Shown piece after piece: positions 4,126 through 32,817 of a DNA stretch of 34,490 nucleotides. The DNA is from a virus. Taxonomy: Duplodnaviria; Caudoviricetes. A program made the translations under genes and the position numbers. Position 1 is the first letter of the stretch. The number at the start of each line of letters is the position of its first letter. The stretch spans positions 1 to 34,490 of IMG/VR virus record IMGVR_UViG_3300037780_000088, one strand, 5' to 3'. The notes under the pieces were generated by a model, which did not search any database, was not told the origin of the DNA, and was given only the letters and a program-made list of their open reading frames with translations.

Positions 4126-4863
4126 TCATTCATCGGCGGTTTCGCTGGTGCTCGATCGGTTTTGCAAGGCGTCTTGGAAGACTTCGGGCGCCTGATCCAT
4201 CATCATGGAAATAATCGCCCGTTGGTAATCCCGGGGCTGGCGTTGCAGGCGGTTGGCCCAATTGCGGGCCTTTTTCTTGATGTTCTCCCGCTCCCGGTAG
4301 TTGTCCCCAAGGTACTGATAATCATGCAACACCATGGGTTCGTCGTAGTTCATGTAAAGGCTTTCCGTGGCCGGCCCACCCCGCGTGGTGGCGGTGAAGT
4401 CGATCCGCCGCCAGTCGGCCAAGGCACGGTCGTACAGCGGGTTCGCATAGGCGGAAATCGCGACGGGGCAGGGGATCCGCGTGGCGATGGCCAGGAATAG
4501 ATTATGGTCCTCCAGCGTCAATTCATGGGTGTAAAGATCCCGCTGGCCCTTCCTGGTTTCCAGGATATATGGCGGATCGAAATAGCCGAATTCGCGCCCG
4601 GTCCATTGATACCCACCGATGAATTCCAGGGCGTCCCCGTGAATGACGGTGACCGCCGGCGGGCGGTGGAAGGTGTCGCGGATCAAACCGTATTGGGCCT
4701 GTTCGCGTTCAATCAGGATCGCCCGGTGGGGCCGCCGCATGTGGCGGAAAACGCCGAGGTTGCCGCCGAAGGCTTCAATGTACACGTCGTGTTTGGGGAT
4801 CTGGTTTATGATCGTCTGATAGACGCCGGCACCGGATTTGCCCCCTGGGTATGTCTGTCGCAC
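4126..4863 (-). CDS. DNA N6-adenine methyltransferase, D12 (Dam/EcoRV-like) class (~245 aa)
   Basis: Likely GTG start at 4863; 'YPGGKS', motif I 'YIEAFGGNLGV', catalytic 'FDPPY', 'ISAY', 'ESLYMNY'. No cognate endonuclease nearby. Confidence 0.88.
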   Translation of the reverse strand: MRQTYPGGKSGAGVYQTIINQIPKHDVYIEAFGGNLGVFRHMRRPHRAILIEREQAQYGLIRDTFHRPPAVTVIHGDALEFIGGYQWTGREFGYFDPPYILETRKGQRDLYTHELTLEDHNLFLAIATRIPCPVAISAYANPLYDRALADWRRIDFTATTRGGPATESLYMNYDEPMVLHDYQYLGDNYRERENIKKKARNWANRLQRQPRDYQRAIISMMMDQAPEVFQDALQNRSSTSETADE

Positions 4864-4897
4864 GGTATTTTCCCTTTCCCGTGGTTGCGGAGACGGC

Positions 4898-5158
4898 TTA
4901 GGCCGCCGAAGGCGGGCGAAAGAAGATGACGCCCGAGGCGGACATGTTCCAGGCGGCTCGGCCCACCATCTTTTCCGGACGGAGAAGATAGGCGCCGGCC
5001 TTGCTGAACCCTTCGTAAATGAAGATTTCCTGGTTTGGATCGCCGGTGGCCTTAAGCCATGCCTTGGCCGCGTCGATCGCAGCGCCCGTGCTGGGGAACT
5101 GGCGGTCAATGACTTCCGTCTGGATATCGTCCTGGTGATAAGCGAATGCGAAATACAT
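4898..5158 (-). CDS. Hypothetical protein (86 aa)
   Basis: Fits between neighbouring genes in the leftward operon; plausible composition. Confidence 0.55.
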   Translation of the reverse strand: MYFAFAYHQDDIQTEVIDRQFPSTGAAIDAAKAWLKATGDPNQEIFIYEGFSKAGAYLLRPEKMVGRAAWNMSASGVIFFRPPSAA

Positions 5159-5586: not shown

Positions 5587-5847
5587 TTATCCCTGGTCGC
5601 GGTCCAGCTTTTCCAGGATTGCTTCCAGAACATAGGTGGTCATAGGTTTAGCCACCGGCCCGCGCTGGCATACGCCATGGACGCGATCACGGATGTTGTC
5701 CGGGACGCGCGGGCGGAAGGGGGTTGTTACCTCGGGCGCGGGCGCCGGCTGGCTGGCCGGTGCGCCGCCCTTGTTGATTACGTCGGCAACGGCCTTGGGG
5801 TCCGCCGTGGTGCCTTTCGTTGGGCGCTTAGGAAGTGCCATGGTCAT
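5587..5847 (-). CDS. Small partition adaptor, ParG-like ribbon-helix-helix (86 aa)
   Basis: Overlaps the parA stop. Flexible N-terminal tail, then 'FRPRVPDNIRDRVHGVC...KPMTTYVLEAILEKL' (beta-alpha-alpha pattern), as in type Ib partition systems. Confidence 0.7.
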   Translation of the reverse strand: MTMALPKRPTKGTTADPKAVADVINKGGAPASQPAPAPEVTTPFRPRVPDNIRDRVHGVCQRGPVAKPMTTYVLEAILEKLDRDQG

Positions 5848-6536
5848 TTCTCCGGGGTGTTGGTGGCGCGTTCAATCGCATGGAAAAGGGCCGCCATTTC
5901 TTGGCGGGCGGGTTCTTCCTTGGCGGACGTGGTTTCGCCAATGGACAGGCCCTTGGCCTGGGCCCGCTTGAACGCAACGCGGGATCCGAGGGCCAGGGCC
6001 TTGGAGGCCGGCGCGGCGAAGCTGGGGAGAAGAATGCTTAGATTGTCCAATTCCATGATGTATTCCAGCACGTCCTTTGCGTCCGGGTCGTTGGGGTGGA
6101 CCATGCTTAAGAAGACGTAGGCCGGAAGATCCGGGTTCACGGTCTTGATTTCGGACACCAGCGTGTCCACCCGGTCCAAAACCCAGGCGTCGAAGGCGCC
6201 GGGCACCACCGGGATAATAAACAGGTCTGCGACGGTCAGGGCCGCCCGCTGGCTGGTGGTGTCGCGCCCGCCCACGTCAATAATGATATCGTCGTGTCGC
6301 TTGGCCAGTTTCAGGGTTTCCGTTCGGACGGCCTCGCCGGACAGTTTGATGGTGATGGGGGTTGGCCGGTCGGGGTGGAGTTGTTCACGAAGTTCCATGA
6401 AGTCGGCGGCGCTGGCCTGTTCGTCCGCGTCGATCAATAGAACATCCCGCCCGGCCAGGTGCCGGGCCAGGGAGAGATTTACGGCCAGGGTTGACTTTCC
6501 TTCGCCACCCTTGATGCCTCCGCATACAATGATCAT
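5844..6536 (-). CDS. parA: ParA-family partition ATPase, type Ib (230 aa)
   Basis: Deviant Walker A 'GGIKGGEGKSTLAVN', A' 'LLIDADEQAS', Walker B 'IIIDVGG'; no N-terminal HTH. Confidence 0.92.
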   Translation of the reverse strand: MIIVCGGIKGGEGKSTLAVNLSLARHLAGRDVLLIDADEQASAADFMELREQLHPDRPTPITIKLSGEAVRTETLKLAKRHDDIIIDVGGRDTTSQRAALTVADLFIIPVVPGAFDAWVLDRVDTLVSEIKTVNPDLPAYVFLSMVHPNDPDAKDVLEYIMELDNLSILLPSFAAPASKALALGSRVAFKRAQAKGLSIGETTSAKEEPARQEMAALFHAIERATNTPEK

Positions 6537-6566: not shown

Positions 6567-6604
6567 GGATCCGGTGGGATCCTTCGGGGATCCAATATGG
6601 ATCC
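6567..6604. promoter_or_regulatory. Phased GGATCC array upstream of parA (candidate centromere/operator)
   Basis: GGATCC at 6567, 6577, 6588, 6599 (10/11/11-bp spacing), overlapping the -10 of the parA promoter. Confidence 0.7.
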
Positions 6605-6623: not shown

Positions 6624-6801
6624 CCCCGCACCGCCCGGCGCGGTCAAATTTGCCATAATGGCTGTAATGCGATTTACGAGGATGGCCCGGCCAAATCCGC
6701 CATGGTCCTATTTCAAGGATAAAATTCCGCAACCTGGGGGACCATGAAAACAAGATTTTGGGGGCGGGGGTGCCGACAAAGGCCAGGACCAAAATCATAT
6801 C

Positions 6802-6892
6802 CACGGGATTTCGCGGACGCCTGCACGGGATAACGCGGACGGGCACCGGGCCACGGGATATCGCGGACGCTTGACACGGGATATCGCGGACG
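6802..6892 (+). repeat. Iterons upstream of repA (4 x 18 bp)
   Basis: CACGGGAT(A/T)(T/A)CGCGGACG at 6802, 6824, 6852, 6875. Confidence 0.9.
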
Positions 6893-6951
6893 CCTACCGT
6901 TCCGGCACCCCAACCGGACGGACGCCACCATGGATAGAAGGGCGCCTGGCT

Positions 6952-8052
6952 ATGAACGATGGCCGCGAGATTTTCCAGCCGGACCTATTCCTTGACCAGT
7001 TGACGGACGTTTCCCCGATCAAGGGTGAACGTGCGTCCATGGAGTTTCCCTTTTTCAGTTTGGAGAAGGGCCGGCGCATGGACCCGATGGTATATGCGGA
7101 CGATTACGTGACGATCCGCATTGAGCCCAGCACCAAGGGCATGGCGACGATTTGGGACAAGGACATATTGATGTATGTCATTTCCCTGATTAACGAAAAG
7201 CTGGAACGGGGCGAAGAGGTAGACCGGACGGTGACCTTTGCCGCCTGGGATTTTCTCAAGGTGACGGGCCGGCACAAGGGTAAGACCGAATACGAACGGT
7301 TCATGGATGCCCTGGAACGCCTGGACGGGACGCGGATCCGCACGAATATAGAGGCGGGCGGCGATCGAGAGCGCCGCGGCTTCGGCTGGATCGAAAGTTG
7401 GCGGGTGATCGAGCAAGGCCGGCCAGACGGTTCCAAGCGCATGGTGGGCGTGAGCATCACCCTTAATCAGTGGATGTTCCGGGCGGTGGTCCAGGAACGC
7501 CGGGTGCTGACCGTCAACCGGGCGTATTTCCGCCTGACCATGGGCCTTGAACGGCGCATGTACGAACTGGCCCGCAAGCATTGCGGCGGCCAGCCGGAAT
7601 GGTTCGTGAGCCTGAAACGCCTTCACCAGAAATCAGGATCCCGGCGGGAGTTCCGCAAGTTCAAGGCGGATATCGTCAAAATCATAGGCCGGGACAGCAT
7701 CCCGGATTACCGCCTGGCGCTGGTCGATCCGGCGGAAGCGGCAACGCCGTTCAAGCCGAAGGACGGCGGATTGCTGGTGCGCGTCACGCCGCGCGAAATC
7801 GAGCCGGCGGCACCGGCGGAACCGGCGGTGGCCGAATCGGTCACCAGAAAAACCGGCGGTGTCGGCCAGAGTGACCTGCTTTTGAAGACGGCCACGGTAG
7901 AAGAGGCCCGGTCGATCCTGCCTGGATATGACGTGTATTATGTCGAGAATGCGTGGAAGGATTGGACCCGGAAACGGGGCGAAGTGATCGACAATCCAGA
8001 CCGCGCATTCCTGGGCTTCTGCCGGTCCTATAAGGATCGAAACCCCCTCTGA
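6952..8052 (+). CDS. repA: Plasmid replication initiator RepA (RPA-like family), ~366 aa
   Basis: 'SMEFPFFSL', 'GMATIWDKDILMY', 'AL.RL.GT.I.TNI', 'YFRL...LERRMYELARKHCG.Q' match alphaproteobacterial RepA initiators; ATG 6952 with AGAAGG SD; iterons on both sides. Confidence 0.9.
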   Translation: MNDGREIFQPDLFLDQLTDVSPIKGERASMEFPFFSLEKGRRMDPMVYADDYVTIRIEPSTKGMATIWDKDILMYVISLINEKLERGEEVDRTVTFAAWDFLKVTGRHKGKTEYERFMDALERLDGTRIRTNIEAGGDRERRGFGWIESWRVIEQGRPDGSKRMVGVSITLNQWMFRAVVQERRVLTVNRAYFRLTMGLERRMYELARKHCGGQPEWFVSLKRLHQKSGSRREFRKFKADIVKIIGRDSIPDYRLALVDPAEAATPFKPKDGGLLVRVTPREIEPAAPAEPAVAESVTRKTGGVGQSDLLLKTATVEEARSILPGYDVYYVENAWKDWTRKRGEVIDNPDRAFLGFCRSYKDRNPL

Positions 8053-8139
8053 CACGGGATATCGCGGACGAATTGCACGGGATATCGCGGACGCTGGCCA
8101 CGGGATATCGCGGACGCCCTTAACGGGATATCGCGGACG
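8053..8139 (+). repeat. Iterons downstream of repA (4 x 18 bp, 23-bp period)
   Basis: CACGGGATATCGCGGACG at 8053, 8076, 8099 and AACGGGATATCGCGGACG at 8122, starting right after the repA stop. Confidence 0.92.
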
Positions 8140-8260
8140 CAAGAATCCGGCCAAGTGTCTGAAATTCCCTCCGTTTCGCCGCGCCTTAACTTCTCCCTTT
8201 TTAACGATAGGGTTTAAGACCCTTAACCCTTCGGGGCTTTCAATCCAATTGAAAGCGGGT
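8140..8260. other. AT-enriched stretch next to iterons (candidate unwinding region of the plasmid origin)
   Basis: Runs such as CCTTAACTTCTCCCTTTTTAACGATAGGGTTTAAGACCCTTAACC in an otherwise GC-rich genome, adjacent to phased iterons. Confidence 0.55.
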
Positions 8261-8663
8261 AGGGAATGTGCGCGGCCCGGCGGGATCCGACCGGCCAATA
8301 ATTTGTGGTCTGGATTAGCATTTACCGCTGCACGTGTTTCAGCTATAGAAGCGGTGGAAGCCCTTGAAAGATCATAATTCAATGACAACGGGCGCCGGCG
8401 TTTCGTTGAGGGTAGGTGAGAACGGTTAGGCCACCGGAGCCTGTAACAAATCGCCAACGGCTGTTTTGTCGAACCGGAAACCCTGAACCATGACCCAGGA
8501 TAAAATCTCATTCTTCGATTTTATAAGCCCGCAAACCGTTATGCCGGCTAAACCCGTTAGGGCCGTGAACCCGGCCACCAGGCCGAGCGCCCGCTTTGCG
8601 GGCCGAATGTGATCGCTGCGCGATCTTCGCTGTTGAGGGGAAGCGTGGTGCCGCCGGTGTGTC

Positions 8664-8751
8664 TGTCAAGGCCAACGGCGCGTTTTCCACAGAGGCCAAC
8701 CGAACGCCGGAAGGTGGCCGGTTGACACCGAGCCCGGCGCAAACATAGCTT
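8664..8751. promoter_or_regulatory. Divergent TTGACA promoters with a DnaA-box-like site between them
   Basis: Leftward TTGACA at 8669-8664; rightward TTGACA 8722-8727 with TAGCTT 18 bp later; TTTTCCACA at 8683-8691 fits TTWTNCACA. Confidence 0.45.
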
Positions 8752-8838
8752 GCCCGGCTTTTCTGATTTCACGTTTTCATCCGGACGAACCGGCATGATC
8801 TTTACGGTGATACCCAGCATCTAAGGGCGCGGATCCAG

Positions 8839-8922
8839 GTCCGGGGGCGGTGTGGCGTATGTCCAGGGCTTCGGCCTAAAGGCCCATCGGCTCCGCTTCT
8901 GTGGGGTTTTCTCCCCCCGGGC
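8839..8922 (+). ncRNA. C4-like (c4-2 type) antisense RNA candidate
   Basis: Outer stem 8839-8847/8914-8922, inner stem 8848-8856/8882-8889, cUUCGg hairpin 8865-8877. 8896-8911 is complementary to 9050-9065 (16 nt, one G:U) and 8890-8895 to 9042-9047. Confidence 0.65.
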
Positions 8923-9002
8923 TGCTTTCCGAAATCCACCAGGCGTAGCGTGGCGCCGGCGGGCGTTGAGGCCGCCGCGCGATTGGGGTTTTTTCAGGCG
9001 GC

Positions 9003-9065
9003 TTGACAACCGGCGCGGGCGCTGTTCAAGATTGCGGCCAACGGAGCGGGAAAACTCCACAGAAG
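9003..9065 (+). promoter_or_regulatory. Rightward promoter followed by the antisense-RNA target site
   Basis: CTTGACA at 9002-9008, CAAGAT 18 bp later, then CGGAGC-GG-GAAAACTCCACAGAAG (9042-9065). Confidence 0.6.
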
Positions 9066-9260
9066 ATGCAGCGCCCCAAATGTCAGCGGGGCCAACGATC
9101 AAGAAGAAACGACGCCTGGGCACCCTCGCTGATCTACGGGACGTTCATTCGGAACGAACCCCACCCTTTCCACCTGTGGTTTTCTCGCAGTCCGCACCCC
9201 CGAAAAGCCGATCAATCGGGGGGTGGTCTATCAACCCATTGTCTCGGGGGGTACGAGGAA

Positions 9261-10838: not shown

Positions 10839-11153
10839 ATGGTTGAAGGACAGGAAAAATGCCTCCGGGCTCTGGCTGAACTGACCCTGCCCGGCGGGGA
10901 GTGGTGTTCCGCGTTTAGGTCGATCATAGAGGCCACGGGGATGGACCGCCGCACGGTGCGGATCAACGTCCGGGCTTTGGCCCGGAAGGGTTTGGCCGAA
11001 TATCACAAGGCCCTTTGGACCGATGACGGTACGCCCGCCGGCGCTGGATACTGCATTACCCAGGAAGGGCAGGCGGTTGCCGCCAAGCTGGTGGAGTCCG
11101 ATCCCGCCGGATCCGGCGGTGCTGCAGGGGCCGGCGAAAGGACTGTGAGATGA
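10839..11153 (+). CDS. Putative winged-helix DNA-binding protein (104 aa)
   Basis: 'FRSIIEATGMDRRTVRINVRALARKGLAE...GYCITQEG' is an HTH + wing pattern. Confidence 0.6.
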   Translation: MVEGQEKCLRALAELTLPGGEWCSAFRSIIEATGMDRRTVRINVRALARKGLAEYHKALWTDDGTPAGAGYCITQEGQAVAAKLVESDPAGSGGAAGAGERTVR

Positions 11154-11647: not shown

Positions 11648-12063
11648 AGTTGACAGATAAACAGGCGAACTACTTGAAAAAGCATTGGTTGGATTTTGGT
11701 CCAGTGCGTGGGGTGGCGGGTAAGCACAAGGGCGTCACGCTCTCGGCGTATGTAAAGAATTGCTGGGCCAGCGGTCGGGCCAGCCCGGATATGCTGGGGC
11801 ACGTTCGATCCACCGCCGTGCAATTGGTGAGTAAAGGTCTTTTGAAGCCTGTCCACGAACGCCTTAAAGAGCGCGTTCGGCTTTACGAATTGACGGACGG
11901 TGGCCAGAGATATTGCGAAGTGACGTGGCCAGATGATTGGTGGGCTTTGATGCGGGTTTATAACGAAACGCACCCAGGCACCTACGATCTGGATATACCT
12001 ACATCCACGCAATGCAAGATCCTTTCTGCCAGGGACGCGGACAGGATCCACCCCGGATCCTAA
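11644..12063 (+). CDS. Hypothetical protein, possibly winged-helix (139 aa)
   Basis: 'MKLTDKQ...QLVSKGLL...LYELTDGG'; ATGA coupling; lower GC than neighbours. Confidence 0.6.
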   Translation: MKLTDKQANYLKKHWLDFGPVRGVAGKHKGVTLSAYVKNCWASGRASPDMLGHVRSTAVQLVSKGLLKPVHERLKERVRLYELTDGGQRYCEVTWPDDWWALMRVYNETHPGTYDLDIPTSTQCKILSARDADRIHPGS

Positions 12064-12071
12064 AAGGATCC
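12044..12071. repeat. Phased GGATCC array
   Basis: GGATCC at 12044, 12055, 12066. Confidence 0.85.
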
Positions 12072-12080
12072 TTGCTGGAA

Positions 12081-12100
12081 TTCATACCGGGTGGTATGAA
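12081..12100. promoter_or_regulatory. Operator-like palindrome TTCATACC-GGGT-GGTATGAA
   Basis: Perfect 8-bp arms; lies within a possible TTGCTG-N17-TATGAA promoter. Confidence 0.55.
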
Positions 12101-12128
12101 ATCGAGATTGCCGAATGGAGGCGAAGCC

Positions 12129-12275
12129 ATGGACCATCCGATGAATGCCGAGGAATACCGGGTCTACCGTTCGACGAAGGCGCGGTGGTGCGCCGTCTCG
12201 TTCTGTGTCGGCGCGATTGCGGCCTTTCTTCTGGTGATCCTGATTGCCGGTGGAGGGTATCCCAATGGTCTGTAA
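12129..12275 (+). CDS. Small membrane protein (48 aa)
   Basis: GGAGG SD before ATG 12129; C-terminal hydrophobic helix. Confidence 0.55.
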   Translation: MDHPMNAEEYRVYRSTKARWCAVSFCVGAIAAFLLVILIAGGGYPNGL

Positions 12276-12660
12276 ATCCGCGATCAACCAGTGTTCCCTG
12301 TCCTGGGATCCGTCCGGCGGGTTCGTCCCGTCCATTCGGGTGTTCCTGGAAACCATTGATCTGGCCATTCCGCGCCGCCAGGACCAGCCGCCCGCCGTCC
12401 ACCAGGTGCGCGACATGATGGGCGATAGCGCCTTTTCGCCGGAAATCCCCACCGCGTCCCTGGAATTCCAGTTGCGCCGGGCCTATGCCGCATTGGACGG
12501 CGCGGCCCTGGCGTTGGGCTATTCGCGGGGCCTGTTCGAAATGGTCAAGAAGTTCCCCGGCCTGGGTGGCCCGGCAAAATTCCTGGACATGGCGCCGGGC
12601 TGTGCGGTAATGCCGAAGGGTCATGCCCCTTCGCCCGTTCCGCTGGATCCGCCGGGTTAA
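12265..12660 (+). CDS. Hypothetical protein (131 aa)
   Basis: GGAGG SD before ATG 12265. Confidence 0.6.
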   Translation: MVCKSAINQCSLSWDPSGGFVPSIRVFLETIDLAIPRRQDQPPAVHQVRDMMGDSAFSPEIPTASLEFQLRRAYAALDGAALALGYSRGLFEMVKKFPGLGGPAKFLDMAPGCAVMPKGHAPSPVPLDPPG

Positions 12661-12754
12661 TTGGGAAACCCGTTACGTCTGGATCATTTTCGCCGCCGCC
12701 TGCGTCGTCGTGGGCTGGTGGGCTTGGGGGTTTCTAAAACATGCATTTGGATAA
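12623..12754 (+). CDS. Possible small membrane peptide (43 aa; not in the ORF track)
   Basis: MPLRPFRWIRRVNWETRYVWIIFAAACVVVGWWAWGFLKHAFG*: basic N-terminus plus one TM helix; fills the gap between neighbours. SD spacing is poor. Confidence 0.4.
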   Translation: MPLRPFRWIRRVNWETRYVWIIFAAACVVVGWWAWGFLKHAFG

Positions 12755-13025
12755 TTTCGAATTGATTACCTGCCCGTCGTGCGGGCGGGCGAACGAGCCG
12801 GAAGAACTGGCGCCGGCGGGTTTCACCATGAGCCCGTCCGGAACTTGTCATATTTCGATGACGTGGCAGGCGATGTGCTGGAACTGCGAAGCGCCGTTGA
12901 AGGTTTCGGCCACGTTGGACCTTAAGGACGGCCAGGGCTCTTGCTGCATTACCAGCGTGCGCCCCATGCCGACGCCTGCCGATATCAGCTATTGCCGGGA
13001 ATTCGGGATCTTATCGCCGGATTAG
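12741..13025 (+). CDS. Small zinc-ribbon-like protein (94 aa)
   Basis: 'CPSCG' and 'CWNC' pairs. Confidence 0.55.
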   Translation: MHLDNFELITCPSCGRANEPEELAPAGFTMSPSGTCHISMTWQAMCWNCEAPLKVSATLDLKDGQGSCCITSVRPMPTPADISYCREFGILSPD

Positions 13026-13158
13026 GCGGTGACGGATTCGAGCCCCGCCGGATCCGGCGGTGATCGATGACAGTCCTTTTACACCCGTGATTTAGAGCCG
13101 CGATTTGCGCCAGGGCGCGATTAGATGCACACTTGGCCCAATTTCATACCAACCGGTC

Positions 13159-13174
13159 TGTTTCACGTGAAACA
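13159..13174. promoter_or_regulatory. parS: Chromosomal-type parS site
   Basis: Exact TGTTTCACGTGAAACA, the consensus bound by bacterial ParB/Spo0J. Confidence 0.8.
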
Positions 13175-13188
13175 ATGGGGCCCGCGCG

Positions 13189-14220
13189 ATGGCTGAAACG
13201 ACGCATGTAACCGTTAACAACGATCCGCCCGTGGTCAAATACGTGGGCAACGGCGCAACGGATGCCTTTGATTTCGACTTCACGGCGTTCAGCATTTCGG
13301 AGGTCCAGGTTTATCTGGATGACGATTTGCAGGAAGACGGCTTTACCGTCGTCGGCAATGCCGGGTTCTTCGGCGGCTTCGAAGGCGGGACGGTGACCTT
13401 TGACACACCGCCCGGCAACGGGGTTCGGGTGACAATCACCTATTACGTTCAGTTGATCCGGGTTTCCGATTTCTCCCCCGGGTTCCTGGACGAAAACGTG
13501 TTGAACACGGAATTGGACCGCCTGGTGGCCGGGCAACGGCAACTTGAGAATGCCCAGGTTCGCGCACTCACCTTTCCGGTGACGGATCCCGCCGGCCTGA
13601 CGATCGCCATTCCGCCGGCGGCGACACGGGCAAACAAGGTGCTGGGCTTCGGCGCGGACGGATCCCTGGCCATGTCCAACCTGACCCTGGCCGAAATCGA
13701 AGACGGAGCCACCGGCCCACAAGGCGAGGAAGGCCCGCAAGGCCCCGCCGGCAATGACGGGTTATTCTCTGGCGGCGAAGCCACGGTGACGGTATCCGGA
13801 TCGGATAAGGTGCCCGTTCTCGATGCCGACGACGGAGACGCGCCCAAATTAGTTTCCGCCCAAGGGATCGCGGACCTGGCGCCCGCCGGCGCGGCGAAGG
13901 AAGCATTCGTGGCGGGCGGCTCGGGAACGTCGCTGGTGTTGGATGGCGACGGCAAAAGCGCCGTCGCCTACGAAATGACCGGCAACACCACGATTTCGTC
14001 AACGAACATCACCGCCGGCAGCGTCTACACCTTCGTTATCCAGATGGCGCAGGACGGCACCGGCGGCCATACCGTCACAATGCCGGCTGGCACGGTCTAT
14101 CCCTACGGGGAAATTCCGGAGTTCCCCACGGATCCGGATGAAGTGTTCTATTTCTCGCTTTCAACTTGGGACGGCGGGACAAGCTGGCTCGTCTCCATGA
14201 TCGGTGCGGAGTACGCCTAA
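13189..14220 (+). CDS. Tail fibre protein (T7 gp17-like N-terminal anchor), 343 aa
   Basis: 'VKYVGNGATDAFDFDF...EVQVYLD...GTVTF..PP..G.RVTI' anchor; short collagen-like GPQGEEGPQGPAG; C-terminal 'QDGTGGHTVT...TWDGGTSW'. Confidence 0.82.
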   Translation: MAETTHVTVNNDPPVVKYVGNGATDAFDFDFTAFSISEVQVYLDDDLQEDGFTVVGNAGFFGGFEGGTVTFDTPPGNGVRVTITYYVQLIRVSDFSPGFLDENVLNTELDRLVAGQRQLENAQVRALTFPVTDPAGLTIAIPPAATRANKVLGFGADGSLAMSNLTLAEIEDGATGPQGEEGPQGPAGNDGLFSGGEATVTVSGSDKVPVLDADDGDAPKLVSAQGIADLAPAGAAKEAFVAGGSGTSLVLDGDGKSAVAYEMTGNTTISSTNITAGSVYTFVIQMAQDGTGGHTVTMPAGTVYPYGEIPEFPTDPDEVFYFSLSTWDGGTSWLVSMIGAEYA

Positions 14221-17490: not shown

Positions 17491-17529
17491 GGATCCCAAC
17501 ATGATCCATTTAGGATCCACCATGGATCC
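17491..17529. repeat. Phased GGATCC array between terS and terL
   Basis: GGATCC 17491, TGATCC 17502, GGATCC 17513 and 17524. Confidence 0.85.
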
Positions 17530-21384: not shown

Positions 21385-21412
21385 GGATCCCACCAGGATC
21401 CCTAAAGGATCC
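21385..21412. repeat. Phased GGATCC array after portal
   Basis: GGATCC at 21385, 21396, 21407. Confidence 0.85.
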
Positions 21413-22650: not shown

Positions 22651-22679
22651 TTGACAACATACCAGTTGGTATGTATTCA
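22651..22679 (+). promoter_or_regulatory. Capsid-operon promoter with embedded palindromic operator
   Basis: TTGACA-N17-TATTCA; the spacer is ACATACCA-GT-TGGTATGT (22657-22674). Confidence 0.65.
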
Positions 22680-22947: not shown

Positions 22948-23006
22948 TCATTTCCGATACGCGATGCCGCCGGCCCTCATACCGTTAGGAATGAGGAAAG
23001 ACGACT

Positions 23007-26833: not shown

Positions 26834-26886
26834 GGATCCTAAAAGGATCCTGGGTGGATCCGGTGCAGGATCCTACCGCCGGATCC
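26834..26886. repeat. Phased GGATCC array after the nozzle gene
   Basis: GGATCC at 26834, 26845, 26856, 26868, 26881. Confidence 0.85.
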
Positions 26887-26948: not shown

Positions 26949-27824
26949 ATGTCGAGCAACGGCGCGAAAATTGGGATCGGTATTCTGGCCCTGGCGGCGG
27001 CCACGGTAATGACCGGCGGGTTTGGCCTGGCCGGTGCGGGTGCGGCGGCTGGGGCGGCTGGGGCTGGTGCGGGTGCCGGCGCGGCGGCTGGGGCGGCGGG
27101 TGCGGCGGCGGCGGGAACGGCGGTGGGAACCGGCGCCACGGCGGCAGGCACGGCGGCGGCTGGTGCGGCAGCGGCGGGAACGGCAGCGGCAGGCACGGCG
27201 GCGGCTGGGGCCGGTGCAGGGTTCGCGGCGGGTGGCATGTCGGCAGTGAGCGCCGCGGGCCTGCCCATGTCCACGACGGCGGCCCTACAGGCCGGTGCGG
27301 GCGCCGGCGCGGCGGCTTCCGGGGCCAGCGCGGCGGGAAGCGCCGCCGCAAGTGAGGGGCTTTTTGCGGGGCTTCTGTCCTCCACAAAGCTGCGCCTTGG
27401 GATCGCCGCCGGCCAGTTGATGGCCACCGGGTATCAGTCCCACCAGCAGAACGCCGCCGCACAGCGGGCTATTGCGGTGCAGGAAGAAAACGAGCGGGTC
27501 AACCGGGTCAATACGGAACTGGATCTGGAATTCCGCGAAGGCGACAACCAGAACCGCCTGGCGCGGGCCTTGTCGGAACAGAGCGTCCTTTACAACGCCC
27601 GCGGCGGCGCCGGCACGGGTGCCGCTCGATCGGCGGTTAACCGGCTGGTTTCCGAAGCGAACCGGGAAAGCAGCCTGATCAACATTGCCCAGGGGATCAA
27701 TGCCCAGGGCGGCAACCTGGGGACCGTCTCGCGGGCCTTGCAGGCCCGGCGGGCGCGGGATCGGTCGTTGGGCGGCGCCGTTGGCGGCCTTCTCGATTTC
27801 GGAAGGGAAGTGGCGCGGGCATGA
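26949..27824 (+). CDS. Internal virion (ejection) protein, Ala/Gly-rich (291 aa)
   Basis: ATG 26949 with AAGG SD; hydrophobic N-terminus, long A/G/T tract, helical C-terminus; position of T7 gp14-like genes. Confidence 0.7.
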   Translation: MSSNGAKIGIGILALAAATVMTGGFGLAGAGAAAGAAGAGAGAGAAAGAAGAAAAGTAVGTGATAAGTAAAGAAAAGTAAAGTAAAGAGAGFAAGGMSAVSAAGLPMSTTAALQAGAGAGAAASGASAAGSAAASEGLFAGLLSSTKLRLGIAAGQLMATGYQSHQQNAAAQRAIAVQEENERVNRVNTELDLEFREGDNQNRLARALSEQSVLYNARGGAGTGAARSAVNRLVSEANRESSLINIAQGINAQGGNLGTVSRALQARRARDRSLGGAVGGLLDFGREVARA

Positions 27825-30712
27825 AACAGGCATTCACAACCCCCAAGTTTGACCGCCGGTTCTACAGCCTAAACCGCCTTCGGGGCGCGTCCCGGGCCGG
27901 CCAGCAATCCCTGGCGTCCATCGGCATGGAACAAGGGGTGGTCGGGGCGACGTTGGCCGGGATTACCCGGCTTGGCTCGGACCTGGCGGACCAATTGGAA
28001 AAGGACGAAAACGAGAAGGCCGCCCGCACCGGCACCCGCCTTGGGACCGTGGCCGGCCAGGAAAACTTCCGGGCGGGCCGCCCGCTGCAATTCCGCGAAG
28101 GCGACGACGTGGGAACAACGGCCTTCAATCAGGCCCTTGAGGCGTCCTATCTGTCGGAACTGGATTTGAACATTGACGACAATATGGGCCGCCTGGCGCG
28201 GGCGTTCCCCACGTCGCCGTCCTCGTTCGACGATGCCTTTGAAAACGAGATCCGGACCAAGTTGCTTCCGATGGTGGATGCGGACATGCGCCCTGCCCTG
28301 TCCATGGAACTGGACCGGCGGAAACGGAAGGCCCTGGAAGGGATTTTCAGCGCCTATGAACAACAGACGGCGGCGGAAACCAACGCCAGCCTTATCCGGG
28401 CTATGGATATCTACGGCGGCCAGAACGCCAGCGCGTGGCGCCACGGTGACCTTGAGACGGCCAGCGAGACGGATATGAAGTTCCGGGGCGTCCTGGATAG
28501 CCGCACGGATCTGACGCCCCAGCAAAAGGAAAAGGCCCTGCTGGATTTCGAGGCGGAAGGCCGCCGCCAGACGATCCTGGCGGCCTTCGACGAAGCCCAG
28601 GGCCAGGGATTGCCGGCGGCGGAAGCCTTTATCAAGGAATTCCGCAAGGGCCGACATAAGGACATAGATCCGGACGTGGTGGAAAGCCTGGCCGGGGAAA
28701 TGACGCAATCGTTGAACCTTGCCCGAGCCGACGCCAAGGCCATGGCCAAGCAGGCCCAGGAGCAAATTTCCCGCGTGGTTACCGTGCTGGAACAAGGCCA
28801 CCCGGTGGGGGACGCGCTGGAAAAGGCGGAACGCCTGCTGGGATCCGTGATGGATCCTGACGTGGCCCAGGAACTGAACCGGGCGAAGGATCTGTTTCGG
28901 CTGCAAAAGACCTTCCGGGGCATGACGCCGGTCACCCTGGCGGCCCAGGTGCGGGCCATGGACCAGGATATTTCCGGCGCCCGCAAGGTCACCCCGGAAA
29001 TGCTCCAAACCCGGGATTTGGCGGCCAAGATGTTGGACAACATGGAACGGGGCTTGAAGGACGATCCGCTGGAATACGCGAACCGCGTAGGTGTCGTGTC
29101 CCTGCCGGCGTTGGACTTGGAAAACCCGGCTTCTCTCACGGGGCGGGTGGAAGCCGCCGCCAGGGTGTCCGAGTTCTACGGGCGCCCTGCCCTGCCCTTC
29201 ACGGGCCAGGAAATGGACAGTATGGCCGCCGGGTATGCGGAAGCCGACGCCACGCAACGGTTGGCCTTCCTGGAACGCCTGGGGGCCTTTGACATGCCGG
29301 CGGACATGGAACGCCGGGTGCTGGACCGGATCGCCGGCAAGGCCCCTGCCCTCGGTCTGGCGGTCGAAATGGTCCGCCGGGATCCGATGACGGCCCGCGG
29401 GATCCTGCTTGGCCAAGATCTGATCAAATCCGGTGCCACGAACCGGCCCAAGGCCGCCGACGTGCAAGACCATTTCAACGCCTACGTCCAGGATGCCTTT
29501 CGGGCGGATCAAACCGGGGCCTCGCGCCGGGCGGCCCAGGAAGCAACCCTGGCCCTCTACATGCACATGTCGCAGGGCGACAATTCGGCGGAATTCGATC
29601 CCGACCGGTTCAACGAGGCCGCGGCCAAGGTGATTGGCACGGTGGCGGAACGTGAGGGCCAACATTTCGTCCTTCCGCCGGGGGTGACCGAAAGCCAGTT
29701 TGATGACCGCATGGACGCCCTGGCGGAAGCGGACCTGCACCCGGAACGCCTGCAATTCGAGGAAACGTCTTCCGGCCCGCACCGGTTGACGCGGGACGGC
29801 TTGGAGCCGATCGGCGCGGAAGAGGTCCGGGACGATGGGGTGTTGGTATCGGTCGGCCCCGGCCAATACATGGTCGGTTTCGAGCGTGAAGGCGGTATGC
29901 GCTTTGCCGTGCGGGCGGATGGGAAACCCTACGTTCTCGATTATGGCGCCCTGCCCTCGCCCAATCCTGCAGCACCGCCGAAATCGGCGGGATCGGCCGC
30001 AGCAAGCGACGAACTGGCGATGGGAAATGCCCGGGCCCTATTCCTGGCCGCACGGCGCTATGGCCGGACGCTGAAAGAGAAGTTTCAATCGTTGATCCCG
30101 CGCAGCACGGCGGACGAGGCAAAGCGGCAATTCCGTTCATCGGCGGCCCAGATTTCGGCCTCTGCCGCCGCGCGGACGCTGGAACACCTGTTCAACGAGG
30201 AAAGCCGCCGGCGCCTGGATGCCGGCAAGCGCGGCCCGGCGTCCAAGGTGACCTTTTCCCAGGATGACCTGGTGCCCAACGGCACGGATCAAGACGCGAT
30301 CGAAGCCCTGGCGCAAGCGGTCTGGAATAACGACGTGGATTTCAGGCAGCGGGTGGCCGAAATCCGTTTCGGCACGTTCGATGACGAATGGGTGGACCGG
30401 GTGAAGGCCGCCACGGGCCAGGATCTTTCCGGGCTGGTTGACGCGATCGACACCGGGCAGATCCAAAAGGCGTTCAAAAGCCATGGGCCCTGGGGTGAGA
30501 CGGCGGAAGATCAAGAGCCGGTTTCGCCCGAAGCCCTGTCCATTTACCGGGGCGTGGTGCGCCACTTCGATAGCGTGAGCGTCCGCCGGCACAAGAATGG
30601 GGACACCTTCCTGTTTGAAAAGCGGATCAACGGCGTGGTGGCCGTAATCCAGCAGCGCCGCACGGCCCAGGGGACGCTGGCATTTTTCAACATGTGGATG
30701 AAGAAACCGTAA
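27821..30712 (+). CDS. Internal virion protein with C-terminal PBECR3-like nuclease-fold domain (963 aa)
   Basis: ATGA coupling; long helical body; C-terminal 'IDTGQIQKAFKSHG...DQEPVSPE...FLFEKRINGVVAVIQ...LAFFNMWMKK' follows the PBECR3 pattern. Confidence 0.72.
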   Translation: MKQAFTTPKFDRRFYSLNRLRGASRAGQQSLASIGMEQGVVGATLAGITRLGSDLADQLEKDENEKAARTGTRLGTVAGQENFRAGRPLQFREGDDVGTTAFNQALEASYLSELDLNIDDNMGRLARAFPTSPSSFDDAFENEIRTKLLPMVDADMRPALSMELDRRKRKALEGIFSAYEQQTAAETNASLIRAMDIYGGQNASAWRHGDLETASETDMKFRGVLDSRTDLTPQQKEKALLDFEAEGRRQTILAAFDEAQGQGLPAAEAFIKEFRKGRHKDIDPDVVESLAGEMTQSLNLARADAKAMAKQAQEQISRVVTVLEQGHPVGDALEKAERLLGSVMDPDVAQELNRAKDLFRLQKTFRGMTPVTLAAQVRAMDQDISGARKVTPEMLQTRDLAAKMLDNMERGLKDDPLEYANRVGVVSLPALDLENPASLTGRVEAAARVSEFYGRPALPFTGQEMDSMAAGYAEADATQRLAFLERLGAFDMPADMERRVLDRIAGKAPALGLAVEMVRRDPMTARGILLGQDLIKSGATNRPKAADVQDHFNAYVQDAFRADQTGASRRAAQEATLALYMHMSQGDNSAEFDPDRFNEAAAKVIGTVAEREGQHFVLPPGVTESQFDDRMDALAEADLHPERLQFEETSSGPHRLTRDGLEPIGAEEVRDDGVLVSVGPGQYMVGFEREGGMRFAVRADGKPYVLDYGALPSPNPAAPPKSAGSAAASDELAMGNARALFLAARRYGRTLKEKFQSLIPRSTADEAKRQFRSSAAQISASAAARTLEHLFNEESRRRLDAGKRGPASKVTFSQDDLVPNGTDQDAIEALAQAVWNNDVDFRQRVAEIRFGTFDDEWVDRVKAATGQDLSGLVDAIDTGQIQKAFKSHGPWGETAEDQEPVSPEALSIYRGVVRHFDSVSVRRHKNGDTFLFEKRINGVVAVIQQRRTAQGTLAFFNMWMKKP

Positions 30713-30740: not shown

Positions 30741-30768
30741 GGATCCCTGGTGGATCCCCCAAGGATCC
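30741..30768. repeat. Phased GGATCC array
   Basis: GGATCC at 30741, 30752, 30763. Confidence 0.85.
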
Positions 30769-30834: not shown

Positions 30835-32790
30835 ATGTTAATAGACACCCGGGACTTTCAGATGCAGGCGGCCTTAAGGCCGGAAGGCGAAAAGCCCACG
30901 GGGCTGGTGGAAAACATGCAGGCCGCCTTCCGAGCGACGGCGTTTTCGGATCTGTTCGTGTCCGAGTTCACCAATCTGCATTCGGCCTTTGACGGGTACG
31001 CGGCGGAAATCGAGGCCGCCACCGGCAAGCGCCTTCGGAACCCGTTGGACGTTGGGCCGGCCTATAACCAATTCGGCGTGGCCAGCCTGTCCGACGCGGC
31101 GCGGGCGCGTAAGGAAGCCTTGGACGAATTCATGGCCGAAGCGCGGTCCCTGCACGTCGTGGCGGACACGGAAGGCGGCGAGAACTTCCGGTTTCGCACC
31201 CTGGCCGATATCGAAGCGGCGATTTCCGCAGAGGCCCAGGCCCGGGACAAAACCCAAGCCGACGTGGCGGGCCGCCAGACGACGGCGGGCGCCTTCGGTC
31301 AATTCTTCGGATCCGCCGGCGCCTTGATGATGGACCCGCCGGTGGGTGGAACCCTGGCCTTCGGGGCGCAATGGGCACAGGGGATCCTACGCCCGTTGAT
31401 CGCGGAAACCCTGATTGCCGGCACGGTAGAGGCCGCGATACAGCCGAAGGTGCAGGAATATCGCCGGCGGCTGGGGTTGGAGGCTGGATTTGCGGAAGGG
31501 GCCTTGAACGTGGCCACCGCCGCCGGTGGGGCCGGCCTGTTCGGCGTTACGGCCAAGCTGGCTGGGATCGGATCGCGTGGGTTGTTGCGCATGTCCCGGG
31601 ATCTGATCCACGCCCGCACCGGTGCCGTGCGGGACGCGGAAACCATCCTGGAACGTGCCGCCGAACAGGAAGCCCTGGTGCCCCATGAAGACTATGAACG
31701 GTTCCTGGGGGACATGGACCGCGCCCAGGGGGCCGTCCGCGAAGGCCGCCCGGTGCGGGAAGACGATGTTGCCGGGCCGGCGCCGGCGCGTACCGCCGAA
31801 AACGAAGGGGCCGCCGGCGCCACCGCCGAAACCGGCGGGAATCGATCACCGGCGAAATCGGCGGTGGTCGACGAAGATCTGGCGACGGTTCGGGCCCCGG
31901 AGGCGGTGGAGGGTTTCCGCGCGGCGCGTGGCAACCGCACCAGCTTTGAACAGGTGGAAGAGACGATAGACCGCGGCGTGGTCACCGTAGGATCCGCTGT
32001 GGAGCCTTCCGGGATCCTGCCGTTTTCCGAAGAACTGGCGATTTTGCGGGGTAAGGCGCCGGCCCCGAAGCTGGAAAACTACCCGGTTCTTATGGCGATC
32101 AAGCGGGCCGGCGGGATCCGCCCGGACGCGATCGGGGCGGATGACCTGCGGGCAATCGGGGTGACCAGCCGCACCTTGCCGGGCCTGTTCAACAAGGCCA
32201 GCGAGTTCCGAGCCGTCGATAACCTGGGGGAAGTTCTGCACGATACAGGACTTTTCGGAACCCGGGCGGATGGGCGGGTGAGCCCGGACGATATCCTGGA
32301 AGCCATTGACGAGGAATTGCGCGGGCGCCCGTTGCGGCATGCCGACGACGCCGATACGGAAGTGCAATTGGACATTCTGGGGGCCTTGGACCGGATCCTG
32401 ACCGAAGAAAACATTTCGCTGGATCTGCCAGACGCGGAGATTGTCCGCCGGATGCAGGTGGCGGGCAGGGGGGTGGAGGAAGCCTATTACCCGGGCGGCG
32501 AGGAATTCGCCCGGTCGGTCGATGCCGCCACCCGTGAAGAACACGCCATGGCCGCCGAACGGGCGTTGGATGAACTTGACGGCGGCGAAGCCGAGCGGGA
32601 CGCGCTGGTGTCCCAGGAACTTCAAGACCTGATCGACGAGGATCCGGAAGCCCTGGTGCCGGTGGACGTGGCCATTGACCCGTCCACGGGCCGGGAAGTG
32701 CCGGTGTTCGTCACCCGCCAGGAATTGGCCGAAGGGTTCCAGCGGGAAGAAGCGTTCATTTCGGAGTTTGAAGCCTGCGCGGGTCTGTAG
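30835..32790 (+). CDS. Internal virion protein (651 aa)
   Basis: GAAGG SD; Gly/Ala amphipathic segment 'GQFFGSAGALMMDP', acidic C-terminus ending 'ACAGL'; synteny. Confidence 0.72.
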   Translation: MLIDTRDFQMQAALRPEGEKPTGLVENMQAAFRATAFSDLFVSEFTNLHSAFDGYAAEIEAATGKRLRNPLDVGPAYNQFGVASLSDAARARKEALDEFMAEARSLHVVADTEGGENFRFRTLADIEAAISAEAQARDKTQADVAGRQTTAGAFGQFFGSAGALMMDPPVGGTLAFGAQWAQGILRPLIAETLIAGTVEAAIQPKVQEYRRRLGLEAGFAEGALNVATAAGGAGLFGVTAKLAGIGSRGLLRMSRDLIHARTGAVRDAETILERAAEQEALVPHEDYERFLGDMDRAQGAVREGRPVREDDVAGPAPARTAENEGAAGATAETGGNRSPAKSAVVDEDLATVRAPEAVEGFRAARGNRTSFEQVEETIDRGVVTVGSAVEPSGILPFSEELAILRGKAPAPKLENYPVLMAIKRAGGIRPDAIGADDLRAIGVTSRTLPGLFNKASEFRAVDNLGEVLHDTGLFGTRADGRVSPDDILEAIDEELRGRPLRHADDADTEVQLDILGALDRILTEENISLDLPDAEIVRRMQVAGRGVEEAYYPGGEEFARSVDAATREEHAMAAERALDELDGGEAERDALVSQELQDLIDEDPEALVPVDVAIDPSTGREVPVFVTRQELAEGFQREEAFISEFEACAGL

Positions 32791-32817
32791 GATCCGGCAA
32801 GGATCCTGTGTGGATCC
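32790..32817. repeat. Phased GGATCC array
   Basis: GGATCC at 32790, 32801, 32812. Confidence 0.85.

Follow-up and report, generated by a model that had tools for sequence, protein, structure and literature searches.

A host-type parS site in front of the virion genes of a podovirus-type phage-plasmid that encodes no ParB

Why should a phage that encodes no ParB carry a perfect copy of a bacterial chromosomal parS? The question arises from a stretch of 34,490 nucleotides (here called the window) that makes up the whole of IMG/VR record IMGVR_UViG_3300037780_000088 and encodes podovirus-type terminase, portal, scaffold, capsid, and tail proteins. One exact copy of parS, the 16-bp palindrome TGTTTCACGTGAAACA, lies at positions 13159 to 13174 of the window. 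It matches the 16-bp consensus of chromosomal parS (TGTTTCAC-GTGAAACA) and is the sequence given as consensus parS in PMC7383237. No other match was present in the window, even at up to 3 mismatches (shuffle mean of 0.03 at this level), and Markov models of order 0 to 4 built from the window predicted 2e-6 to 8e-6 exact copies (a chance of about 1e-5 in rounded terms). A preliminary description of this DNA had reported an exact 16-mer that was very unlikely to arise by chance in 34 kb, and both statements were confirmed. Chromosomal sites occur in clusters close to oriC, on a replicon that also bears parAB, whereas the window has a single site on a 34-kb phage and no parB.

The site is placed at the front of a long plus-strand run of virion genes headed by the tail fiber gene. 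The distance to the start codon of that gene (ATG at 13189) is 14 bases, as described before, and the gene product matches PHROG tail families. On the plus strand, parS sits in the gap between the open reading frame (ORF) of a 94-aa zinc-ribbon protein (12741 to 13025) and the tail fiber gene. The site can be called intergenic with respect to this plus-strand gap, but it is spanned by two minus-strand ORFs (67 and 198 aa) that run antisense to the tail fiber gene; the 67-aa ORF had no Pfam match. The GC content around parS (57 to 59%) is the same as that of the genome. A scan of positions 11800 to 13400 found no promoter or terminator, including no sigma-70 promoter by consensus. One contig from a possible source sequencing run covers the site with identical letters, which is not independent evidence; a second run covers short pieces only, the site not among them, and no RNA run was listed.

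The element is a podovirus-type phage-plasmid: it is circular and combines a plasmid Rep and iterons with virion genes, and a scan of 55 ORFs revealed no integrase. IMG/VR lists the record as linear and 66% complete. However, its ends overlap by 37 nt (1 mismatch), and the frame read across this overlap is 847 aa long, as is the open frame at the homologous gene of a sister genome (G006), which CheckV rates at 68% despite its terminal repeats. We therefore took the genome as a complete circle, and the equal length of the end-spanning frame makes a missing ParB-bearing piece unlikely. Searches in six frames with the ParB_N, HTH_ParB, and TIGR00180 profiles gave no match at E ≤ 10 while the controls were positive, which speaks against a hidden ParB and upholds the earlier claim that the phage encodes none. 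We also ruled out a fragment of host chromosome or a chimera, as phage genes flank the site and the ends of the genome join. The best 25 Rep matches listed on plasmids were all alphaproteobacterial, and the named genomes with related capsid genes were mostly Alphaproteobacteria. From these relatives, the host probably belongs to the Alphaproteobacteria.

Other features of the genome deserve mention. No gene was recognizable at 8143 to 9260 (ca. 1.1 kb, from the downstream iterons to the lytic replication gene), and no CI-like repressor was found in the window ORFs scanned; in the sister genome, the replication gene is followed by an XRE-type HTH ORF (assigned by eye). A class 3 lipase gene (1743 to 2882), common to both genomes, adjoins the lysis region, and a PBECR3 nuclease-like domain ends the 963-aa internal virion protein (27821 to 30712). 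The palindrome CCGCC-N6-GGCGG occurs in 16 copies versus 0.6 expected, from 2085 to 31838 (one at 13045), in coding and noncoding DNA and often beside GATC or GANTC, and is nearly absent from G006. As a host repeat it was rejected: across 151 genomes, one variant pattern was about as frequent as the control.

The phage appears to have its own means of partition (Table 1). Its ParA lacks an N-terminal HTH and starts at the Walker A strand, as expected of type Ib ParA proteins, and further matched NF041546 (E of 5e-36, under the cut-off) and ParF (4dzz; E of 6e-6). We rejected an identification of this ParA as MipZ: MipZ structures were the top PDB matches, but at an E of 4e-7 they were level with ParF. 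The partner encoded just downstream is likely a ribbon-helix-helix (RHH) protein, as the preliminary description had it, although the signals behind this assignment are weak. There was no Pfam match at E ≤ 1. The nearest named Atlas clusters were mostly RHH (RHH_1, Antitox_RHH, and ParG) but included Lsr2, the profile matched CopG-family structures with an E of 0.13, and the predicted model (pLDDT of 77) has two C-terminal helices, with PutA RHH and Arc as the best folds (E of about 1).

Repeats accompany these genes. The arrangement GGATCC-N5-GGATCC, with a period of 11 bp, occurs 14 times in the window versus 0.01 times in shuffles, and the arrays are dispersed, lying upstream of parA and in at least six intergenic places round the circle. 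In the sister genome, 8 GATATC pairs have a period of 11 bp, and periods of 8 to 10 and 12 to 14 bp gave none; the hexamer was picked after viewing its parA region. One of these arrays lies about 30 bp upstream of the sister's parA and another in its terS-terL gap. The 11-bp arrays appear to form the phage's own dispersed type Ib centromere or operator, with a hexamer that would differ between the two genomes. Since the phage thus appears to have its own ParA, partner, and arrays, the host parS is probably unneeded for plasmid inheritance. Beyond the arrays, GGATCC is abundant in the window as a whole (86 copies versus about 20 in dinucleotide shuffles), and an adenine methyltransferase-like gene lies within 4126 to 5109.

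Table 1. Positions of the replication, partition, operator-like, and virion features discussed (window coordinates unless another genome is named)
Feature	Position	Strand	Evidence or remark
Predicted RHH partner of ParA, 84-86 aa	5587..5847	-	Weak matches, all toward RHH
Short ParA, 230 aa, Walker A at N terminus, ParF-like	5844..6536	-	phrog_164, E 5e-33
GGATCC array (x4) just upstream of parA, candidate own centromere/operator	6567..6604		Repeat scan
Iterons upstream of repA	6801..6896	+	Repeat family D12
RPA-family plasmid replication initiator (repA)	6952..8052	+	PF10134, E 7e-80
Four iterons downstream of repA, 23-bp period	8052..8143	+	Repeat family D12
Predicted winged-helix protein, 104 aa, candidate box reader	10839..11153	+	Weak Pfam HTH matches
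GGATCC x3, 11-bp period	12044..12071		Repeat scan
Operator-like box (perfect), directly after GGATCC array	12083..12098		
Operator-like box CATACC-N4-GGTCTG (1 mismatch), TG (2 bp) common with parS	13145..13160		
parS (exact)	13159..13174		
Tail fiber/tail protein gene	13189..14220	+	PHROG tail/tail fiber families, E 3e-10, 1e-6
GGATCC array in terS-terL gap	17491..17529		Sister has GATATC pair in same gap
GGATCC x3, 11-bp period, after portal gene	21385..21412		Repeat scan
Sigma-70-like promoter TTGACA-N17-TATTCA upstream of major capsid gene	22651..22679	+	By eye
Operator-like box (perfect) filling 17-nt spacer of capsid promoter	22658..22673		
Operator-like box (1 mismatch), ribosome-binding region of major capsid gene (ATG 23007)	22978..22993		By eye
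GGATCC array	26834..26886		Repeat scan
GGATCC array, 11-bp-periodic	28841..28857		Repeat scan
GGATCC x3, 11-bp period	30741..30768		Repeat scan
GGATCC x3, 11-bp period	32790..32817		Repeat scan
GATATC arrays of sister genome (G006:C1)	4484, 10058, 12550, 13891, 14601, 19519, 27276		11-bp-periodic
parS sites of L323 (metagenome capsid-gene cluster)	304, 1144, 2943		Each in head-tail module gap

A second kind of repeat touches parS directly. The box CATACC-N4-GGTATG is present in 4 copies within 1 mismatch in the window, against a shuffle mean of 0.045 and a maximum of 1 in 200 shuffles, a somewhat flattering comparison given that the motif was defined post hoc from the window itself. Three of the four boxes precede virion genes. 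It had been stated that parS overlaps the end of a CATACC site; the hexamer itself (13145 to 13150) is clear of parS, and the overlap concerns the last two bases of the palindromic box to which it belongs. The sister genome has no such box within 1 mismatch, and none of the 490 fetched loci has a perfect one. A role as a general alphaproteobacterial host operator found no support, as single matches occurred in 3 of 61 genomes versus 2 for the control; one alphaproteobacterial genome has 39 copies, all inside an unrelated repeat element. A candidate reader of the boxes, on weak evidence, is the 104-aa protein listed in Table 1. Its model is of low confidence (pLDDT of 60), the best fold matches were mostly wHTH regulators at E ≥ 0.12 with none at E ≤ 0.001, and no homolog was found in G006. 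The overlap of box and parS suggests a gating of ParB loading, against which it counts that only 2 bp are shared.

Next to these features of the window stands the record of its relatives. We found none that is close at the species or genus level (best identities of 55% for terminase, 53% for capsid, and 59% for Rep); a direct capsid scan of viral contigs returned nothing, and plasmids gave no capsid match. The only syntenic relative found was G006, a complete genome of 33,999 bp with direct terminal repeats that shares with the window the Rep, ParA, partner, methyltransferase, lysis, and virion genes. It contains no parS within 2 mismatches. Its tail fiber gene follows the previous ORF after a gap of only 24 bp, and the stretch from the small early genes to the tail fiber differs between the two genomes. 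Because G006 does without parS, this phage group can dispense with the site; its absence there is the strongest result against a conserved role. Absence in close relatives, together with a lack of binding by host ParB, had been named beforehand as an outcome that would speak against recruitment of host ParB; it applies here in part, as the syntenic sister lacks the site but is only 32 to 58% identical to the window at the protein level.

Wider comparisons gave a similar picture. No parS was found in the 16 viral records with the same Rep type (G006, G007, 13 others, and Rhodobacter phage RcCronus). RcCronus resembles the window in its Rep family and in an annotated partitioning protein; it differs in having no host parS within 1 mismatch. 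Among terminase loci, exact parS was absent (0/80) and one-mismatch sites were present in 2 of 80, whereas 1 of 240 capsid loci (L323) has three sites and another has a match at 2 mismatches. Pooled, 3 of the 320 loci carry parS within 1 mismatch versus 0.044 expected and 317 do not, with the reservation that these loci are partial and not deduplicated and that many resemble chromosomal clusters of different gene order rather than phages. A whole-record search yielded a one-mismatch site after the lysis genes of G008 (1 of 4 records), and a separate set had parS in 2 of 5 records, both picked for existing matches. In the related podoviruses L061, L205, and L323, most sites lie in gaps, several of them 11 to 110 bp before virion-module genes; in L179 and L005, the sites are inside coding frames. 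The distribution among relatives is consistent with sporadic gain or loss, well above chance, and parS may have been gained in the lineage of the window. Many of the capsid relatives (L222 to L461) are found in alphaproteobacterial chromosomes (e.g., "Candidatus Enterousia") or on short contigs, forming compact portal-capsid-tail clusters with another gene order, possibly domesticated or gene-transfer-agent-like.

Host-type parS is by no means confined to this group. We estimate from 2 of 64 database parts that the exact site is present in about 5,700 viral stretches, versus 2 for the reversed palindrome used as a control. Phage hallmark Pfams flanked the site in 30 of 72 sampled viral contigs (17 of them phi29-like), and origin-region housekeeping families flanked it in none (counted by eye in 141 proteins from the two longest ORFs round each site, for the first 80 of 137 loci, excluding 8 second loci of the same contig). 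With no origin-region housekeeping family in these flanks, the viral excess is not accounted for by host contamination. By crude gene calls, 57 of 106 distinct viral sites are not wholly within an ORF, with ORFs making up 82% of the DNA. With a 30-nt query, matches were obtained in 501 of 50,697 phage records versus 39 of 72,556 plasmid records (12 of the 39 exceeding 2 Mb), a rough comparison in that the shortest matches were 16 bp for phages and 17 bp for plasmids, records are redundant, and some phage matches (P2 and Klebsiella phages) are not parS. As a share of all records, the site is thus present in roughly 0.2% for viral contigs and in up to about 1% for cultured phages.

The same parS is common in phages of Listeria, Clostridium, and Arthrobacter, and many of the cultured phages with parS are presumably lytic. 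Ruegeria phage RpAliso (OR257569.1) has one exact and two one-mismatch sites (at 140695, 147105, and 148087) and no ParB_N match. The exact 16-mer also turned up in small single-stranded DNA microvirus contigs (L009 and L037, with Phage_F capsid) and in Microviridae records. In the probable host class, it occurs in 44 of 61 genomes, versus 0 for the control (43 of 60 without the unpublished genome G059), and all five genomes with related capsid genes carry parS within 1 mismatch, in clusters.

Host-type parS on a phage is already known from phi29. PMC2731898 describes five parS sites in phi29 and the use of host Spo0J for spore entrapment, which is likewise stated in PMC9437464. Both phi29 and the window combine a host chromosomal parS with the lack of an own ParB. 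The primary paper on the phi29 sites is reportedly that of Meijer et al. from 2005. phi29 is linear and lytic and has five sites serving spore entrapment, whereas the window, a circular phage-plasmid, has a single site, a putative ParA/RHH system of its own, and probably an alphaproteobacterial host; to our knowledge, Alphaproteobacteria do not form endospores. By analogy, the window site may work like the borrowed parS of phi29, with membership in spore entrapment being a separate matter. In open-licence papers, we found neither a survey of phage-borne parS nor a functional study beyond Bacillus.

Other known systems resemble the window in part. Type Ib systems (ParF/ParG/parH of TP228 and delta/omega of pSM19035) combine a short Walker-type ParA, a small RHH partner, and tandem repeats. 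The window shares the short ParA, the small RHH-like partner just downstream, and the tandem repeats upstream of parA; its arrays differ in being scattered over at least seven places in the genome, and we know of no type Ib system that accompanies a host-type parS. As in P1 and N15, a plasmid replicon, partition genes, and virion genes are joined in one element; P1 differs in supplying a ParB and a parS of its own, and N15 in supplying a SopB. Phage-plasmid partition in P1 and N15 is covered by the review PMC11652158, which cites a title stating that the N15 partition system facilitates late gene expression. The ParABS system of the Caulobacter crescentus chromosome uses the same consensus 16-mer, whereas the window site is single, off the chromosome, and without parB in cis. 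PMC5815017 reports for Caulobacter that ParB spreads over ca. 2 kb per parS site, that extra or ectopic parS leads to elongation and abnormal MipZ foci, and that a single strong parS on a low-copy plasmid reduces viability 100- to 1,000-fold. The unusual point about the window is that its parS is borne on a plasmid, although in Caulobacter, a member of the probable host class, such sites do harm, and that it overlaps an operator-like box.

We tentatively favor, at somewhat less than an even chance, a reading in which parS serves infection or lytic growth, by positioning phage DNA via the host segregation machinery, rather than the partition of the resident plasmid. Host ParB clamps would quite probably load at the site. 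The earlier proposal that the phage recruits host ParB is plausible in view of the consensus site, the use of this 16-mer in the host class, the lack of a phage ParB, and the phi29 precedent. Silencing of the late operon and a coupling of lysis to host state, two further branches of that proposal, would be possible additional effects. Once loaded, ParB would spread from parS, and the phage DNA would be positioned through host ParB-ParA or a polar anchor, as in phi29 in another setting. We place the benefit in infection or lytic growth because the element seems to partition itself, parS is far more common on phages than on plasmids, and plasmid-borne parS is costly in Caulobacter. The single site, compared with five in phi29 and clusters in hosts, counts against this reading. 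A phage protein bound to the overlapping CATACC box could keep ParB from loading during one phase of the life cycle and permit loading during the other; the blocked phase would most simply be the lysogen, where a free plasmid parS would be costly. Spelled out as a switchable host centromere, the idea is that the regulator of the virion genes masks parS in the plasmid state and releases it on induction, when host ParB (with ParA, PopZ, and MipZ) would be captured by replicating phage DNA. We consider this specific version rather unlikely.

Several alternatives were weighed against positioning through host ParB. The site could be a recent neutral capture of host DNA or be read by a phage protein, with no selected role for host ParB. 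Its absence from G006 and the difference between the genomes in the stretch before the tail fiber agree with such an origin, yet the flanks hold no origin-region host gene, the local GC content is that of the genome, parS interlocks with a phage-wide box, parS recurs in phages, related and unrelated, much more often than chance predicts, and no ParB-type DNA-binding domain (HTH_ParB) was found in six frames; we give this explanation only a slim chance. Nor do we expect that parS acts as a decoy in the lytic phase, by which amplified phage DNA would titrate ParB and MipZ, stall division, and enlarge the phage-making cell. There is only one parS per genome, and the site is also common in phages of Listeria, Clostridium, and Arthrobacter, hosts in which we know of no MipZ. 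This improbable scenario draws on the Caulobacter phenotypes of extra parS described above and on the control of division by ParB-MipZ in several Alphaproteobacteria, where PopZ also acts (PMC7022226).

A role of ParB as a borrowed repressor, whose clamps would extend into the start of the virion operon and lower its expression, either jointly with the box protein or in alternation with it, accounts for the overlap of parS with one of four boxes, of which three precede virion genes and one fills a promoter spacer, and for the sites close before virion-module genes in L061, L205, and L323. It is further in keeping with Pseudomonas aeruginosa, in which ParB represses neighboring genes from intergenic parS, although regulation by ParB is demonstrated for few genes only according to the same review (PMC7022226). 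We nevertheless think it unlikely: no promoter consensus was found at the site, every gap in a one-directional run of genes precedes a gene, the sites of L179 and L005 are inside coding frames, and that of G008 follows the lysis genes. The main idea of the preliminary description, a second, host-driven partition route backing up ParA/RHH in the plasmid prophage, seems very improbable to us. Its gene content marks the element as a plasmid prophage, and chromosomal par operons with a single parS can stabilize unstable plasmids (PMC7022226). However, it has candidate centromere arrays of its own at positions common to G006, which itself lacks parS; none of the 16 viral records with this Rep type has the site; and plasmids seldom carry parS, which does harm in Caulobacter when placed on a low-copy plasmid (PMC5815017). 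Together, these results weaken the plasmid-segregation branch of the earlier proposal.

Spore entrapment in phi29 is the only functional study of a phage-borne host parS that we could trace. In the window element, the apparent partition system of the phage makes a partition role of parS look redundant. With partition apparently redundant and plasmid-borne parS harmful in Caulobacter, either the site must be masked or its benefit must lie elsewhere, be it in positioning, in control of late genes, or in arrest of division. RpAliso, with three parS sites, offers a cultured phage-host pair as a model for this question. If the switchable centromere were true, one genome would run two centromere systems in turn.
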